The notes beneath the pieces were generated by a model that saw only the letters and a program-made list of their open reading frames with translations, searched no databases and was not told the DNA's origin. Source: Isurus oxyrinchus (taxonomy: Eukaryota). Taken from it: a stretch of DNA of 64,000 bases. Both the position numbers and the translations under genes were made by a program. Of this stretch, positions 4,505-49,704 are shown piece by piece. How positions within the stretch are numbered: the first letter of the stretch is position 1; each line of letters starts with the position of its first letter. The stretch covers positions 1,302,001 to 1,366,000 of the forward strand of contig JANJGN010000010.1 in NCBI GenBank assembly GCA_026770705.1, written 5' to 3'.

Positions 4505-4511
4505 GCGGGGT

Positions 4512-5187
4512 CAGCTGCATCTTCCAGTTGGTGATGGGGGCGGGGCCCACTCGCTGGTGTGTAGAATGATGTGGTGTAACGTTGGGCCTGTGTCCTGACA
4601 TCACCCCGCATCATTTACTCTTTCAGTTCATCAGGTGCACAGCCAAATTGTCAAAGACCTTTTAAGGCCATTAAAAAAGTAATTAAAGTGACTGATGGAC
4701 CTTAAGGTCAGCGAGCAGTCTGGGACCCCAGGCAGGCTTCAGAAAAAACATGAAACCTCATCCATGGGAGGGATGAGGCTTCATGAGGTTATTAAAATTT
4801 GTACGAAATCTCTAAATAAAAGCAATTGACAAGTCGCACCCCATGTGACAGTGGCACATCAGGGGACATGTCAGTATTTTTTTTTCTCATCTTTATTTAA
4901 TGTTTCAGACCTGAGCCGATCTCCCTGAGGTGGGACTTTGGCCCTGGGAGATCTGTGCGCCCTTTCATGTGTCTATGTGAAAGATCCCACCCCCGGCTTA
5001 GGGAATCCACCCCACTCCGACCACACAAGGAGTGCACAGCATTTCTGAGTGGGCATCACGCTGGGTGGGCCTTAATTGGCCTGCCCACATAAAATAGCAG
5101 CTCGACCCTGACTGGGGACGCTGATCGGGGACCCGCGGTCCTGTGCCTGCTCCAGCGCACCCCCCCAATGGGGGGAAAATGTTGCCC
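4512..5187. mobile_element. PIF/Harbinger-type MITE
   Basis: Family body; right TIR GGAAAATGTTGCCC followed by resumption of the host CR1. Confidence 0.8.
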
Positions 5188-5321
5188 AATATTACGTTTG
5201 GTTCCCTCATCCAAATCATTGATGTACATTCTGAATAGCTGGGGCACAAGCACTGATCCCTGCGGTACCCAACTAGTCACTGCCTGCCACTCGGAAAAAG
5301 ACTCATTTATTCCTACTTTCT

Positions 5322-5400
5322 GGGCAGAATTTGCCCATTGGCGTGTGGGATTGGGCCCCGCACATCTGCACATGAAATGATGCGCGGTGACATTGGGGAG
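5322..5400. mobile_element. Left end of a Harbinger element (TIR and subterminal region)
   Basis: GGGCAGAATTTGCCC TIR and the first ~80 bp shared with the MITE family. Confidence 0.75.
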
Positions 5401-8400
5401 CACCCCGACATCACCGTGACATTACCCCGACATCACCGTGACATCAACCTGACATCACCATGACATCGCTGTGACATCACCACAACATCACCGTGACATC
5501 AACCCAACATCAACGTGACATCACCCCGACATCACCGTGACATCACCATGACATCACCATGACATCACCCCGTCATCACCGCAACATCACCCCGTCATCA
5601 CCCCGACATCACCCTGACATTACCCCGACATCACCGTGACATCAACCTGACATCACCGTGACATCACCCCGACATCACCGTGACATCACCATGACATCAC
5701 TGTGACATCAACCCGACATCAACGTGAAATCACCCCGACATCACCGCGACATCACCATGACATCACCATGACATCAACCCGTCATCACCGCGACATCACC
5801 GTGACATCACCCCGACATCACCGTGACATCAACCCGACATCACCACGACATCACCCCGACATCACCGTGACATCGCCGTGACATCACCACGACATCACCG
5901 TGACATCAACCCAACATCAACGTGACATCACCCCGACATCACCACGTCATCACCGCAACATCACCCCGTCATCACCCCGACATCACCACGGCATCACCGC
6001 AACATCACCCCGATATCATCCCGACATCACCCCGACATCACCGCGACATCACCCCAAAATCTCCCTGACATCACCCCGACATCACCAGGACACCACTCCG
6101 ACATCAACCCGGCATCACCGCGACATCACTCCGACATCACCGTGACATCACCGCGATATCACCGCCACATCACCCTGACATCACCGCGACATCACCCCGA
6201 CATCATCGCGACATCACAGTGACATCACGCCGACATCATTCCGACATCACCGCAACATCATCATTCCGACATCACTCTGACATCACACCGACATCACTGC
6301 GACATCACTCTGATATCACCCCGACATCACCGTGACATCACTCCAACATCACAGTGACATCACTCCGACATCACTCTGACATCACTCCGACATCACCCCG
6401 ACATCACCGTGACATCACTCTGACATCACTCCGACATCACCCCGACATCACCGTGACATCACTCCGACATCACCCTGACATCAGTCCGACATCACCCCGA
6501 CATCACTCCGACATCACTCCGACATCACCCCGACATCACCATGACATCACTCCGACATCACCCCGACATCACCGCGACATCACTCCGACATCACTCCGAC
6601 ATCACCATGACATCACTCCTACATCACCCTGACATCACTCCGACGTCACTGCGACATCACTCCGACATCACCCCGACATCACCAAGACATCACTCCGAGA
6701 TCTCTCCGACATCACTGCGACATCACCCCGACATCACCCCGACATCATGGCGAAATCACTCCAACATCACCATGACATCACCCCGACATCACCGCGACAT
6801 CACTCCGTCATCACCCCGACATCACCGCGACATCACCCCGACATCACGTTGACATCATCCCAACATCACCATGACATCACCGCGACATCACCCCGGCATC
6901 ACCTTGACATCATCCCGACATCACCATGACATCACCGCGACATCACGCCGACATCGCCGCAACATCACGCCGACAACACCATGACATCACCGCGACATCA
7001 CTCCGACAACACTCCGACATCACCCCGACATCACTCCGACATCACTCCGACATCACCCCGACATCACTCCGACATCACTCCGACATCACCCCGACATCAC
7101 TCCAACATCACTCCGACATCACCGTGACATCACTCCGACATCACTCCGACATAACCATGTCATCCGACATCACTCCGACATCACCCCGACATCATCGCGA
7201 CATTACTCCGACATCACCCCGACATAATCGCGACATCACCCCGACATCACTGCGACATCACCGCGACATCACCCCGACATCACCGCGACATCACCCCGGC
7301 ATCACCGCGACATCACCGCGACATCACCGCGACATCACTCCGACATCACCCTGACATCACCCCGACATCACCATGACATCACCACGACCTCACCGCGACC
7401 TCACCGTGACATCACCGTGACATCATCCTGATATCACCCCGACATCGTCGCGACATCACCCGGACATCAGCCCGACATCAACCTGACATCACTGCGACAT
7501 CACCCTGACATCACCCCGATATCACCCTGACATCAGTGCGACATCACCCTGACATCACGCCGACATCACCCCGACTTCACCCCGACATCACCGCGACATC
7601 AACCTGACATCACCGTGACATCACCCCGACATCACCCTGACATCAACCAGACATCACCGTGACATCACCTCACCATCACTCTGACATCACCCCGATATCA
7701 CCGTGACATTACCCCGACATCACTCCGACATCCCCCCGACATCACTCCGACATCTCCCCGACATCACCGCGACATCACTCCGACATCACCGCGACATCAC
7801 CCCGACATCACCGCGACATCATCCCGACATCTCCCCGACATCACCGTGACATCATGCCCACATCACCCCGACATCACCGCGACATCACTCCGACATCACT
7901 CCGACATCACCGCGACATCACTCCGACATCACCATGACATCACTCCGACATCACCCGACATCACCGTGACATCATGCCCACATCACCCCGACATCACCGC
8001 GACATCACTCCGACATCACTCCGACATCACCATGACATCACTCCGATATCACCCGACATCACCGTGACATCATGCCCACATCACCCCGACATCTTCGTGA
8101 CATCACTCCGACATCACCCTGATATAACCCTGACATCACCGCGACATCACTCAGACATCACTGCGACATCACCACGACATCACTGCGACATCACCACGAC
8201 ATCACCGCAACATCACCGCGACATCACCACGACATCACCGTGACATCACCGCTACATCAGTCCGACATCACCCTGACATCACTCCGACATCACCCCGACA
8301 TCACCGTGACATCACCCCGAAATCACCGCGACATCACCCTGACATCACCCTGACATCACCATGACATCACTGTGACATCACTGCGACATCACCGCGACAT

Positions 8401-9341
8401 CACCACGACATCACCATGACATCACCGCTACATCACTCCAACACCACCCTGACATCACTCCGACATCACCCCGACATCACAGCGACATCACCCCGACATC
8501 ACCGCGACATCACCCTGACATCACCATGACATCACCCCGACATCACCGTGACATCACCGCGACATCACTGCGACATCACCACGACATCACCATGACATCA
8601 CCCCGGCATCACCCCGACATCACCGCGACATCACCCCGACATCACCGTGACATCACAGCGACATCACCATGACATCACCACGACATCACCCTGACCTCAC
8701 CCCGACATCACCATGACATCACCCCGACATCAACCTGACATCACTGCGACATCACCGCGACATCAACCTGACATCAACCTGACATCACCGTGACATCACC
8801 CCGACATCACCGCGACATCAACCTGACATCGCCCCGACATCACTGCGACATCACCACGACATCACCGTAACATCACCTTGACATCACCACGACATCAACC
8901 TGACATCAACCTGACATCAACCTGACATCACCGCGACATCACCGCGACATCACCACGACATCACTGTGTCGTCACCCTGACATCACCCCGACATCACCCC
9001 GACATCACCGCAACATCACCTCGACATCAACCTGACATCACCACGACATCAACCTGACATCACCGCGACATCAACCTGACATCACCGCGACATCACCGCG
9101 ACATCACTGTGACGTCACCCTGACATCACCCCGACATCACTGTGACATCACCGCGACATCACCGCGACATCAACCTGACATCACCGCGACATCACTGTGA
9201 CGTCACCCTGACATCACCCCGACATCACCCCGACATCACCGCGACATCACCACGACATCACCATGCAATCAACCTGACATCACCGCGACATCACCGTGAC
9301 ATCACCCTGACATCACCGCGACATCACCCTGACATCACCAC
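5401..9341. repeat. 11-bp minisatellite, consensus GACATCACNNN, about 360 units
   Basis: Continuous 11-bp periodicity; variation concentrated in three positions (CCC, CGT, CGC, CAT, TCC, CCT, CAC). Confidence 0.98.
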
Positions 9342-9694
9342 AGTACAATAGGAGCCACTGCTCCACAAGGGCTGTGGTGGAGAGAACCATTGGTCTTCTG
9401 AAGATGCGCTTCTGATGCCTGGACCGTTCAGGGGGCGCACTCCAGTATCCCCCAGATTGTGTGTCGGTGATAGTGGTTGCATGCTGCGTTCTCCACAATG
9501 TTGCGCTGGAAAGGGGGGATGCAGTGGACGATGAAGATTTAGATGCAGTGTCTGTGGCTGCACACGATGAGTCCAGCAGTGAGTCCGAGGATGAGCACAC
9601 ACAGGGAAATGCTGAGGAGGTAGACGTTGACCCGGGCATACTGCAGGGAGGCAAGGACACCCGGGAGGCTTTAATCCAATGAACCTTCAGCTAG
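9341..9694 (+). pseudogene. Harbinger (HARBI1-like) transposase C-terminal remnant
   Basis: Frame reads QYNRSHCSTRAVVERTIGLLKMRF*CLDRSGGALQYPP..IVVACCVLHN; the stop at 9413-9415 looks like CGA>TGA; acidic tail follows. Confidence 0.9.
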
Positions 9695-10074
9695 GACACC
9701 ACAGATGGACCTCCAGGACAAGCCTGGGCTGCAGACTCTATGCTTGATACCTAACTGCCAAATCTGCCAGGTTAGGAATATTAACTAAGGGCCTTATTAA
9801 TAAAGCTGAATGTCCCACAAAACACTCATTACATTATTGGAAACCATCCACTTGCAGAAGAAAAGGGCACCCTCAGCCATGGTCACATGCCTGAATTTAA
9901 TATCACAGGCAAAGAAACTTATTGAAACAAACTGACAATAGTGTTCCAGTTCAAAGCAACTCATGAAGACCTCATCTCGGGCCAACACAGAAACACCAGT
10001 GATAAACCTTTGGTGTGCCTAAAGTGCCTTATGTTTAAGTTTTCGGGTGCTACACCTTGGTGCTGACCCCAGTG

Positions 10075-13211: not shown

Positions 13212-13909
13212 GGGCAGAATTTTGCCGTTGGTGAGCAGGGGGCGGGGCCTCTCGCTGAAGTGTAAAATGACACGGGATGATGTCAGACCGAATCCCCCAC
13301 ATCATCCCACCCCATTTAAATTTTCAGGAAGGTGGGGGTGCAGCAAAATCAGCTGTGGGCCTGCTGACCGGTCAGTGGCTAATTGAGGCCATGGACAGGA
13401 GCATTGAAACAATTAAAGGACCTGCCCGTCCAACCTTAATGTTGTCGGGTCGGCCAGGAACCCCGGCGGGAACTAGAGAAAACATGAAACCAGCGGCAGG
13501 ATGGGGATTCATGCAGGGTTTAAAAAGTTTAGTAAAGATGTTCTGTAAATTATGAACATGTTCCATCTCATGTGACATTGTTACATGAGGGGGACATGAT
13601 AGGGAATTTTATTTTCTATTTTTAATATTTTTCAAAGTGTCAGTGATCTCCCTGAGGCTGCACTTAGCCTCAGGGAGATGTGCGCTCCGTCGTGTGCATG
13701 TGTGAAAGAGCGCACTCTCACTTTTGGGGAATCCCCCCCGCCCGCACAGGGAGTGTATAGCGCTTCCCGCCGGGCCTCATGCTGGGCGGGCCTTAATTGG
13801 CCCACCCATGTAAAATGGCGGCGGGGCCCACTTCGCTGGTGGGGACTGGCTCCCCGCCCACTGGAGATTGGGTCGGGCCTGCCCGCCCGACAGGCAGAAA
13901 ATTCTGCCC
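13212..13909. mobile_element. PIF/Harbinger-type MITE nested in the Gypsy integrase
   Basis: TIRs GGGCAGAATTTT / AAAATTCTGCCC; imperfect 3-bp TSD GTA/ATA; integrase sequence continues on both sides. Confidence 0.9.
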
Positions 13910-33355: not shown

Positions 33356-33537
33356 CAAAAACAGAATTACCTGGAAAAACTCAGCAGGTCTGGCAGCATC
33401 GGCGGAGAAGAAAAGAGTTGACGTTTCGAGTCTTCATGACCCTTCGACCCTTCGGCTGCCAGACCTGCTGAGTTTTTCCAGGTAATTCTGTTTTTGTTTT
33501 GGATTTCCAGCATCCGCAGTTTTCTTTGTTTTTATAT
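33356..33537. mobile_element. Short Penelope-derived insertion with inverted arms and 14-bp TSD
   Basis: TSD TTGCTCATGAAGAT at 33342-55 and 33538-51; perfect 42-bp inverted arms 33356-97 / 33455-96; sequence matches 52670-52799. Confidence 0.92.
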
Positions 33538-45614: not shown

Positions 45615-48600
45615 ATAGACTCATAGACGTTTACAGCACAGAAGGAGGCCATTCGGTCCATTGTGTTCTCGCCAGTCACCAAAGATCTGACTACATTAAT
45701 CCCATTTTCCAGTGCTTGGCCCATAGCCCTGGAGGACTATGAATATCTAAATAATTCTTAAATTTAACGAGAGTTTCTGACTGAACCACCCTTTCAGGCA
45801 GTGGGTTCCAGACTCCCACCGCCCTCTGGGTGAAAAAGATTCTCCTCAACTCCCCTCTTAGCCTTCTACCTCTTACTTTAAATCTATGCCCCCTGGTTAT
45901 GGACCCTTCTATTAATGGAAAAAGTGCCTTCCTATCCACCCTATCTATGCCCCTCAATCTTATACACCTCAGTCAGGCCCCCCTTCAACCTTCGCTGCTC
46001 CAAGGAAAACAACGCCAGCCTATCCAATCTTTCCTCATAGCTCAGACCCTCCAGCCCAGGCAGCATCCTGGTAAATCTCCTCTGCACTCTCTCCAGTGCA
46101 ATCACATCCTTCCTACAATGTGGTGACCAGAACTGCGCACAGGACTCCAGTTGTGGCCTAACCAGCGTTTTATTCAGTTCCAGTATAACCACCTTGCTCT
46201 TGTATTCTATGTCTCAGCTAATAAAGGCAAGTATCCATGTGTCTTCTTAACCACCTTATCTACCTGCCCTGCTACCTTCAGGGATCTGTGGATATGCACA
46301 CCAAGGTCCCTCTGATCTTCAGACACTTCAGTACAAGGTCCTTCCATTCATAATCTAATCCCTTAACTTGTTAGCCCTCCCCAAGTGCATTACCTCACAC
46401 TTTTTCAGGTTAAATTCCATTAGCCACTGCTCTGCCCACTTGACCAGCCCATTGATATCCTCCTGCAGTTTACAGCTATCCTCCTCACTATTTACCACCT
46501 TACCGATTTTTATGTCATCTGTGAACATCTTGATCATCCCCCCTACATTTAAGTCCAAATCATTTATGTACGCCACAAACAGCAAGGACCCCAGCACCGA
46601 GCACTGCAGAACCTCACTGGAAACAGACTTCCAGTCACAGAAACATCCCTCTACCATCACCCTCTGCTTCCTGCCTCTCAGTCAATTTTGAATCTAACAT
46701 GTCACTTTGCCTTGGATCCCATGGGCTCTTACTTTCTTAACCAGTCTGCATTGAGGGACCTTATCACAGAATCAGAATCACAGAGTCAGTGCAGAAGAGG
46801 CCCTTCAGCCCACTGAGTCTGCACCGACACATGAGAAACACCTGACCTACCGATCTAATCCCATTTACCAGCACTTGGCCCATAGCCTTGAATGTAATGA
46901 TGTGCCAAGTGCTCATCCAAGTACTTTGTAAAGGATGTGAGGCAACCCGCCTCCACCACCCTCCCAGGAAGTGCATTCCAGACTGAGTATCAAAAGCCTT
47001 GCTAAAGTCTATGTAGACCACAGCAAATGCATTACCCTCAGCTACATCCCTGGTTACTTCCTCAAAAAACTTGACCAAATTTGTCAAACACGAACTTCCC
47101 TCAACAAATCCACGCTGACTACTCCTGATTAATCTGTGTCTCCAAGTGCAGATATATTCTGTCCCTCAGAATTCTTTCTAGTAACTTCCACACCATTGAG
47201 GTTAGACTAACAGGCCTGTAATTTCCTGCTCTATCCCTTCCTCCCTTTTTTAATAATGGGACAACGTTAGCAGTCCTCCAGTCCTCTGTCACCTCACATG
47301 CAGCCAGAGAGGATTTGAAAATTACTGCCACTGCCCCTAATATCCCTTCTCTTGCCTCCCTCAACAGCCTGGGATACATCTCATCCGGGCCTGTGGATTT
47401 ATCCACTTTTAAGGCCACTAAACCCACCAGTACCTCCTCTCTCTGTATGTTAATTTCCTCTAATATTTCACAATCCTCCACCCTGATGTCTATACCTGCA
47501 TCATCCTTTTCCATTATGAAGACAGACGCAAAGTATTCATCAAGGACCGCACTCACGTCTTCCGGGACCATACATACATTACCTCTATGGTCCTTAATTG
47601 GCCCTACTCTTTCCCTAGTTATTTTCTTGCTCTTTATATAGTTAAGAAACCCCTTTGGGTTTTCCTTTATTCTACCCACCAATGCTTTCTCATGCACTCT
47701 CTTAGCTTCCCTAATTTCCTTTTTAACTTCCCCTCTGCATTTTTTGTACTCCGCTAAGGACTCTGCCGTATTGAGCCTCGGTATCTGCCATAAGCTTCTC
47801 TTTTTTTCTTAATCCTGACTTTTATGTCCCTTTGACATCCAGGGTTTTTTGGACTTGGTCCCCCCTTTGTTTTTATGGGAACATATTTGCCCTGTACTCT
47901 CTATTTCCACCTTGAATGCCTCCCACTGCTCTGACACAGTTTTATCTGCAAGTAGCTGCTCCCAGTGCCCTTGGGCCAAATTGTATCTCATCTTAGTAAA
48001 ATTAGCCTTTCACCAGTTTAGAACTTTTATTCCCAGCCCAAACATTCTTTTCCATAACTATTCTAAATCTAACTGAGTTATGGTCACTATCTCCAAACTG
48101 CATCCTGACTGATTCGCCTTCCATCTGCCTGGGCTCATTTCCAAACTTTAGCTCCAGAACTGTCTCCTCCTTTGTTGGGCTTTCTACGTTCTGGCTAAAA
48201 AAGTTCTCCTGGATGCAACTTAAGAATTTTGCTCCCTCCCTACCTTACACACTGAAACTATCCCAGTTATTATTTGGGTTGTTAAAATCCCCGACTATTA
48301 CTGCCTTATTATTCTTACACTTCTCTGAAATGTGATGACATATTTGATCCTCTATCTCTCCCTGACTGTTTGGGGGTCTATACCACACACCCAACAGCGC
48401 GTTTGTCCCTTTTGTGTTTTTTACTTCTACCCATATGGCCTCATTTGATGATCCTTCCAAGAGATCATCCCTCCTCACTGCTAGAATTGATTCCTTGGTC
48501 AATATTACAACTCCACCTCCTCTTCTATCCCCCACTCTAACTTGTCTGAATACCCTATAACCAGGAATGTTGAACTGCCAATCCTGCCCTTTTAGCCAAG

Positions 48601-48985
48601 TCTCGGTCATAGCTATGATATCAAACTCCCACGTGCCTATCTGTGCCCTCAGCTCATCTGTCTTATCCCTCAGGCTCCTTGCATTAAAATATATTCCATT
48701 TAGCCTTGCTAAACTCACATCTTTCTTATCTAGCCTATGTTTCCTCTGCCTTCCAGACTCACTTACTAGTGTTTTAACTTCTAATTCTATCCCAGCTTCT
48801 CTCCCTCTGAACTACTTTTCAGGATCTCATCCCCCTGCCAATTTAGTTTAAATCCATCCCAGCAGCATTAGCAAACCTCCCTGCGAGACTGTTGGTCCCG
48901 TTCCTATTCAGATGTAACCCATCCAACTTGTACAGATCCCACCTCCCCCAGAAACAGTCCCGGAATCTAAAGCCCTCCCTCCTCA
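45615..48985 (-). mobile_element. Near full-length CR1 ORF2 (APE endonuclease + RT), decayed; a CR1 tail is nested at 46767-46987 with TATCA TSD
   Basis: YFNARSL..DIIAMTETWL, YRPP, VGDFN (endonuclease); GNYRPVSLTS, DFSKAFD, YINDL (RT). Confidence 0.92.
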
Positions 48986-49351: not shown

Positions 49352-49704
49352 ACGGGACCAACAGCCTCGCAGGGAGGTTTGCTAATGCTGCTGGGGTGGA
49401 TTTAAACTAAATTGGCAGGGGGATGAGATCCTGAAAAGTAGTTCAGAGGGAGAGAAGCTGGGATGGAATTAGAAGTTAAAACACTGGTAAGTGAGTCTGG
49501 AAGGCAGAGGAAACATAGGCTAGATAAGAAAGATGTGAGTTTAGCAAGGCTAAATGGAATATATTTTAATGCAAGGAACCTGAGGGATAAGACAGATGAG
49601 TTGAGGGCACAGATAGGCACGTGGGAGTTTGATATCATAGCTATGACCGAGACTTGGCTAAAAGGGCAGGATTGGCAGTTCAACATTCCTAGTTATAGGA
49701 TATT
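49352..49704 (+). repeat. Inverted duplicate of 48549-48901
   Basis: About 350 bp; about 8 mismatches by eye to the reverse complement. Confidence 0.95.

Follow-up and report, generated by a model that had tools for sequence, protein, structure and literature searches.

The array and its host element

The window, i.e. the whole stretch of 64,000 nucleotides that was analysed (G000:C10:1,302,001-1,366,000), belongs to a 4.98-Gb assembly and therein to C10 (169 Mb), the locus being situated 1.3 Mb from the C10 end. A dispersed repeat at 5185-5321, presumably LINE-like, forms the host flank and was the insertion target of a PIF/Harbinger-type element; other copies of this flank continue differently past 5321, and their continuation is absent after the broken 3′ end of the element. 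The element, read on the plus strand throughout, opens with a 5′ TIR (5322-5335) that is present on both ends of full-length sisters and on the MITE at 13212-13909, so that the TIR is indeed common to element and MITE family, as the earlier note had stated. A subterminal hairpin follows (5380-5422), recognized by its DNA fold and by alignment with the 5′ ends of the family. Within its right arm, 79 bp inside the TIR, begins an 11-bp minisatellite of approximately 358 units with interspersed variants (5401-9340), the arm itself being unit 1. Behind a deletion junction (9340-9342) lie the 3′ part of a DDE transposase frame with two internal stops (9343-9694, identified by translation and by 89-91 % DNA identity to sisters) and more of the element interior (9695-10074, its end being approximate), detected when full-length sisters were compared with the window by blastn. 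The comparison copy of the earlier note is the neighbouring related MITE on the plus strand (4509-5188, limits approximate), whose own hairpin is unexpanded. Elsewhere in the window, an inverted repeat of 353 nt with 98 % complementarity and a spacer of 450 nt (48549-48901 / 49352-49704) and a perfect 42-nt inverted repeat of SINE-like copies standing head-to-head, 57 nt apart (33356-33397 / 33455-33496), were observed.

A search of the assembly with 9341-9800 returned 8,750 first-look candidates, and the best 39 other copies were 89-91 % identical. In 29 of 29 sisters inspected, normal transposase sequence preceded the homologous piece and the array was absent. The sisters measure 3.3-4.8 kb from TIR to TIR, typically about 4.5 kb. 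The Pfam scan was done on sister frames, of which the copies L002 and L104 matched DDE_Tnp_4 (E 1e-35 and 5e-33) and Plant_tran, and the piece in the window was assigned via its 86-91 % DNA identity to them. By this type of DDE transposase the host element is placed, as far as sequence assigns it, in the PIF/Harbinger superfamily. The target site duplication of the sisters matched exactly over 3 bp in 3 of 12 cases and at 2 of 3 positions in several, with one end mis-set. In one sister, two frames on the opposite strand were without a Pfam match to a Myb/SANT domain; the copies are decayed.

Alignment to full-length Harbinger copies, which the earlier note had recommended, showed the window copy to be collinear with them and revealed what it has lost. 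It retains about bp 1-99 and 1,321-2,050 of the element; the missing interior amounts to 1,220-1,287 bp (measurable against 11 of 12 sisters), and with the stop at about 10074 a further 2.4 kb or so and the 3′ TIR are missing from the window. The copy is unable to transpose as one unit. Compared with the family majority, it has diverged by 7.5 % at non-CpG positions, and the sisters by 7.2 %. The expanded arm had been attributed to the neighbouring MITE; it belongs instead to the transposase-bearing family of about 4.5 kb, the 5′ ends of which are 78-87 % identical to the window copy.

Units, seed and variation of the array

Tandem Repeats Finder (TRF) reported 5401-9339 with period 11, 358.4 copies, 79 % matches and 0 % indels, and a unit parse gave 357 units, 350 of them of 11 nt. 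The unit aligns to the hairpin arm of the family, in agreement with the earlier description of some 360 units derived from that arm; it is collinear with the transposon segment, and transposon sequence flanks the array directly and in register. Folded as single-stranded DNA, the hairpin 5380-5422 reached -12.7 kcal/mol (z -3.3), a value equalled by none of 200 shuffles, and z ranged from -2.6 to -3.3 in all three copies folded. The array showed no secondary structure above that of shuffles (z 0.5 and -0.5). A coding role of the array was rejected on 39-123 stops per frame in all six frames of 5322-9700.

The amplified motif is flanked by a short direct repeat (5401-5407 and 5412-5418, offset 11 bp), read directly from the sequence. 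This seed is not the perfect CCCCG pair proposed before; the two 7-nt copies match at 5 of 7 positions today and matched at 6 of 7 prior to CpG decay. Both copies have left a trace in the units: the variable tetramer occurs most often in two states (76 and 48 of 357 units), and these are identical to the two seed-copy ends. Core positions 1-6 are invariant at 95-98 %, and variation consists mainly of the two founder states and CpG decay. Since the units deviate by 2-5 % at the core positions, less than the 7.5 % non-CpG divergence of the element, the array is younger than the element or was homogenised. Variants cluster regionally, an 11-unit block is duplicated (7838/7958), and two runs of at least five identical units were observed versus a shuffled mean of 0.03; unit identity falls slightly with distance, from 0.80 to 0.79. 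The seed repeat itself is ordinary, because of the 77,197 site-offset pairs in the element 348 have an equally good microhomology (at least 6 of 7), and a special status of the microhomology in the arm was accordingly rejected.

Junctions and read evidence

The final unit adjoins transposase sequence without a spacer, as the earlier note had observed for its HARBI1-like frame, and the sequence beyond shares 89-91 % identity with this region in the 39 best-scored other copies. If two CpG decays are allowed, 9340-9342 fits both the unit end and the family majority of the transposase, which suggests a 3-nt microhomology at the 3′ junction with both CpGs since decayed. The junction pattern, searched with up to one mismatch, matched once in the genome, i.e. 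in the window only. This search yielded no copy carrying the deletion only, so that any order of deletion and expansion is tentative.

Short reads support the 5′ junction. A 111-bp contig of run X2, which is possibly the sample of the assembly itself, covers 5273-5383 including the 5′ insertion junction with 0 differences, and a second contig of this run, composed of array-type letters, loops from 5445 to 5401. Array-like reads at 5400-5445 occurred under both organism labels, for which other arrays may be the source. The read-run search found no run with half of the query words, the best share being 0.38.

Related arrays in the genome

A triple-unit pattern had 121 matches in the genome, 117 of them in the window array, and the remainder led to C22:4.58 Mb. 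Variant patterns and a DNA search yielded further arrays, and 16 outside the window were inspected; as the patterns were exact or nearly so and at most the best 40 candidates were scored per DNA search, this number is a lower bound. At two further matches, C19:18.6 Mb and L094, there was no array, and they are not counted among the 16. The expectation that such arrays would be linked to Harbinger ends held for five of the 16, which reside in the arm of a hairpin belonging to a related TIR element, and failed for the other 11. With five further arrays at arms, the proposed route from transposon to satellite is recurrent.

These five cover a wide range of sizes. The smallest have 3.2 units (C4:3.24 Mb, in the opposite arm of a hairpin) and 4.3 units (C23:32.28 Mb, followed by the element body, its head unrecognised). 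C22:4.58 Mb holds 110 units of an 11-mer over 1.2 kb between head and body of an element. The array at C21:85,813,040-85,927,720, read in near-contiguous 9.9-kb pieces, comprises about 115 kb or 10,400 11-mers and is bracketed by the head and body (13.6 and 51 bits) of a single MITE-like element; other tandem repeats abound in the DNA nearby. The largest, C20:1,547,868 to about 2,481,150, consists of an 18-mer in roughly 52,000 units (about 933 kb) and starts about 70 bp inside a decayed TIR. All 37 stretches sampled from it were array (about 192 kb, 21 %), and the 150 matches listed out of 256 all fall in this interval. It contains kb-scale block duplications (offsets of, e.g., 2,051, 3,579 and 9,934 bp), and no element body was present after its end. 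The commonest 18-mer of C20 matched at least 15 of 18 positions at the arm position in 23 of 107 hairpin ends versus 1 of 400 random windows. The C20 head was weak with the first profile (5.9 bits). With a profile of the TIR and left part from which the arm was excluded, applied to the 120 nt upstream, the scores were 49.5 (window), 39.5 (C22:4.58 Mb), 18.4 (C20:1.55 Mb) and 13.6 bits (C21:85.8 Mb), values attained by 0, 1, 5 and 5 of 3,000 random windows, respectively; the remaining 10 of 14 arrays had no match to this profile. The element body resumes right after the arrays in C21, C22 and C23 (51-70 bits), thus a deletion is unnecessary for expansion. Heads, registers, periods (11 or 18) and diagnostic bases differ among the arm arrays, which points to independent births. 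A mobile subfamily carrying the array was rejected: 117 of the 121 triple-unit matches are in one array, its junction is unique, and the 3′ TIR is missing.

The arm link was rejected for C10:164.08 Mb, C22:4.33 Mb, C28, C48, C10:118.9 Mb, C7, C239, C2834, C18, C1:87.2 Mb and a 29-mer array in L093. Several of these have features of their own. The 13.3-kb 11-bp array at C10:118,853,600-118,866,860 has a unit near that of C21 and is without a transposon flank, being either an orphan or convergent. A G-to-T change at one unit position, not explained by plain CpG decay, reaches 27-55 % in three arrays (C20, C21 and C10:118.9 Mb) and is rare in those of the window and of C22. A 9/10-bp array is found at C7:979,036-1,014,266 (35 kb) and C239:248,907-256,290 (7.4 kb) with near-identical flanks; the difference in length may be allelic or paralogous, and the array sits inside what we take to be a retrotransposon reverse-transcriptase frame, at the catalytic motif. 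At C2834:49,719-52,808, a 3.1-kb 11/22-bp array with an arm-like core lacks a transposon flank and is surrounded by presumably LINE-like reverse-transcriptase sequence. A 20-unit 11-bp array at C1:87,224,176-87,224,402 has a TIR of the type described above about 110 bp away and sits at a different motif; hence other sites in these elements also expand. In the family copy at C12:104,285,869 (L091:1501-1525), a second arm-like unit stands in place of the segment past the arm, possibly a first-step duplication or a conversion.

Frequency of arm-born arrays

The pattern of a single unexpanded arm had 3,019 matches in the genome. The earlier note had regarded the array as tying the MITEs to their autonomous parent; this tie exists and is evident from the full-length sisters, but with so many unexpanded arms the array is not needed for it. 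A pattern of one duplication (dimer) matched 4 times, 1-2 of the matches looking like true arm duplications, and back-to-front control patterns matched 5, 7 and 4 times. Applied to 257 kb of unselected DNA, the hairpin profile detected 14 ends (reversed control: 0), corresponding to about 270,000 per genome, and the same pool contained 23 tandem arrays, about 90 per Mb; the pool is small and was drawn in part from repeat-rich neighbourhoods. As the arms cover about 0.2 % of the genome, this rough background of arrays lets many arm-born arrays be expected by chance. All searches were seeded with the unit of the arm itself, thus recurrence is established and its rate is not. Two arrays of more than 100 kb from one site of about 20 bp are suggestive of a hotspot, yet the recurrence likely reflects the huge copy number of the transposon and not a special mechanism.

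Origin of the array

We favour, with a probability of about 0.62 for the model as a whole, a minisatellite born by slippage in a dead copy, later enlarged by unequal exchange and joined to the transposase by a separate microhomology deletion. Replication would have slipped between the imperfect 7-nt direct repeats 11 bp apart in the hairpin arm, the first duplication following the Haber-Louis route. Slippage together with unequal exchange or conversion would have driven the later growth while CpG decay went on, and about 1.25 kb of the interior would have been lost separately via the 3-nt microhomology. The expansion would have occurred after insertion, in an immobile copy, and the array would play no role in transposition; its recurrence would be mostly an effect of numbers, with a few hundred thousand hairpin copies at hand. 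Counting against this model, the clustering of units is weaker than long turnover might give.

The earlier note had combined the loss of the transposase 5′ part with the amplification. The loss stands; its coupling to the amplification in one event is not supported. A single repair event, either abortive gap repair or iterative templated synthesis, would explain the flush and unique junction with its inferred 3-nt microhomology, and abortive gap repair was proposed for Medicago PIF/Harbinger VNTRs in the accessible part of PMC2213677. The three arm arrays in C21, C22 and C23 are without such a deletion, however, the regional variant clusters and the block duplication indicate stepwise growth, and the unrelated 3′ truncation of the same copy implies that deletions are common here; we regard a single event as improbable. 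That one array spread to other hairpin copies by ectopic conversion or circular DNA is very improbable. The G-to-T change at the same position, common in C20, C21 and C10:118.9 Mb, the last without a transposon flank, would fit such a spread, but period, register and diagnostic bases differ, the window unit shares the bases of its own head, and the heads come from different subfamilies. An assembly artefact that stitched the array between unrelated transposon pieces is hardly credible: read support is limited to short reads at the 5′ junction from a run that may be the assembly's own sample, but both sides are collinear parts of one family, correctly ordered and oriented, the units are heterogeneous with regional structure, and the short-read contigs cross the 5′ insertion junction exactly and loop from 5445 to 5401.

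A true hotspot in the hairpin arm, where fold-back in replication or repair or the binding of the element's Myb-like protein triggers or favours expansion, is doubtful. It would draw on the fold of the hairpin in all three copies, on the six arm arrays including the window, two of them above 100 kb, and on a zebrafish Myb-like protein binding a 9-bp subterminal motif (Harbinger3_DR, reported second-hand in the accessible part of PMC9710019). Opposed to this are the scarcity of dimers among thousands of single arms, the equally frequent matches of the back-to-front controls, the arm births predicted by chance from the rough background, and the array's failure to fold. G4 potential is low in the window array, with 6 % of windows scoring at least 1.2, and high in the C22 array (95 %); the G-quadruplex as a general driver was rejected, as the high score is confined to C22. 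An extended version, in which the hairpin is a nursery of satellites, its fold or Myb-like site raising expansion far above background, and the C20 block of about 0.93 Mb, close to the end of C20, acts as heterochromatin or centromere, appears quite improbable; if true, it would provide a full series that starts with a duplication of 2 units and ends with a satellite of megabase size, the parent transposon bracketing each. Slippage in a dead copy, repeated by chance among many copies, remains our preferred reading. By itself the window array is an ordinary transposon-born minisatellite, and the set is more useful: one homologous site of about 20 bp gave arrays of 3, 4, 110, 358, about 10,400 and about 52,000 units. 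The ancestral state is known from thousands of unexpanded copies and the parental flanks are legible, which makes stalling versus megabase growth testable, as well as the accumulation of variants and kb-scale block duplications with size.

Comparison with known systems

A literature search, with subscription journals and Repbase/Dfam outside its reach, found no account of these arrays, which is weak evidence for novelty; the accessible part of PMC11406177 is silent on them. Mini- and satellites born from Alu, B1, MaLR and MITE sequences are described in the available portions of PMC9659126, PMC6947457 and PMC12628747, the first two giving in tables and citations a mouse B1-derived VNTR family, the MaLR-born Ms6-hm and Hm-2 and Alu-derived minisatellites. 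Like the B1, MaLR and Alu cases, as far as these excerpts describe them, a short GC-rich unit was here multiplied where it stood, at a single site of a dispersed repeat with many copies. Unlike the SINE- and LTR-born repeats, the parent is the hairpin arm of a DNA transposon, the arrays reach 115 kb and about 0.93 Mb, and one site gave two periods. The mouse B1 VNTR family, too, arose repeatedly at one site. The Haber-Louis model, in which minisatellites are born between direct repeats of 5-10 bp (second-hand in the accessible part of PMC6947457), is matched by the imperfect 7-nt direct repeat flanking the amplified motif; beyond it, both seed copies are still legible as the two main unit variants.

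Within the superfamily, Medicago MtPH-A6-4 has 60-bp subterminal VNTRs with 2-35 repeats in 18 of 23 members, at the extreme filling the interior (PMC2213677, accessible part). The window element is likewise PIF/Harbinger-type with subterminal variable-number repeats. In MtPH-A6-4, by the same partial text, the VNTR travels with the family, whereas here rare single-copy events occurred against a background of thousands of arms without expansion, units measure 11 or 18 bp, and the window copy is without a 3′ TIR. In contrast to mobile families that carry repeats (MtPH-A6-4, miDNA4, DTC84 type), the window array was not dispersed by transposition. For the MITE-derived satellites Xstir/Xmix and miDNA4 of Xenopus, growth driven by microhomology and later loss of ends were proposed in the available text of PMC12628747; in both genomes MITE, MITE-plus-array and orphan-array forms coexist. 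The Xenopus elements belong to other superfamilies, and according to that text miDNA4 probably took up a repeat that already existed, while the model for Xstir involves a pair of adjacent elements; the unit in the window, by contrast, derives from the arm of the element itself, within one copy. The array resembles the B1-, Alu- and MITE-born repeats; its origin is of a known kind, notable for the range of sizes.
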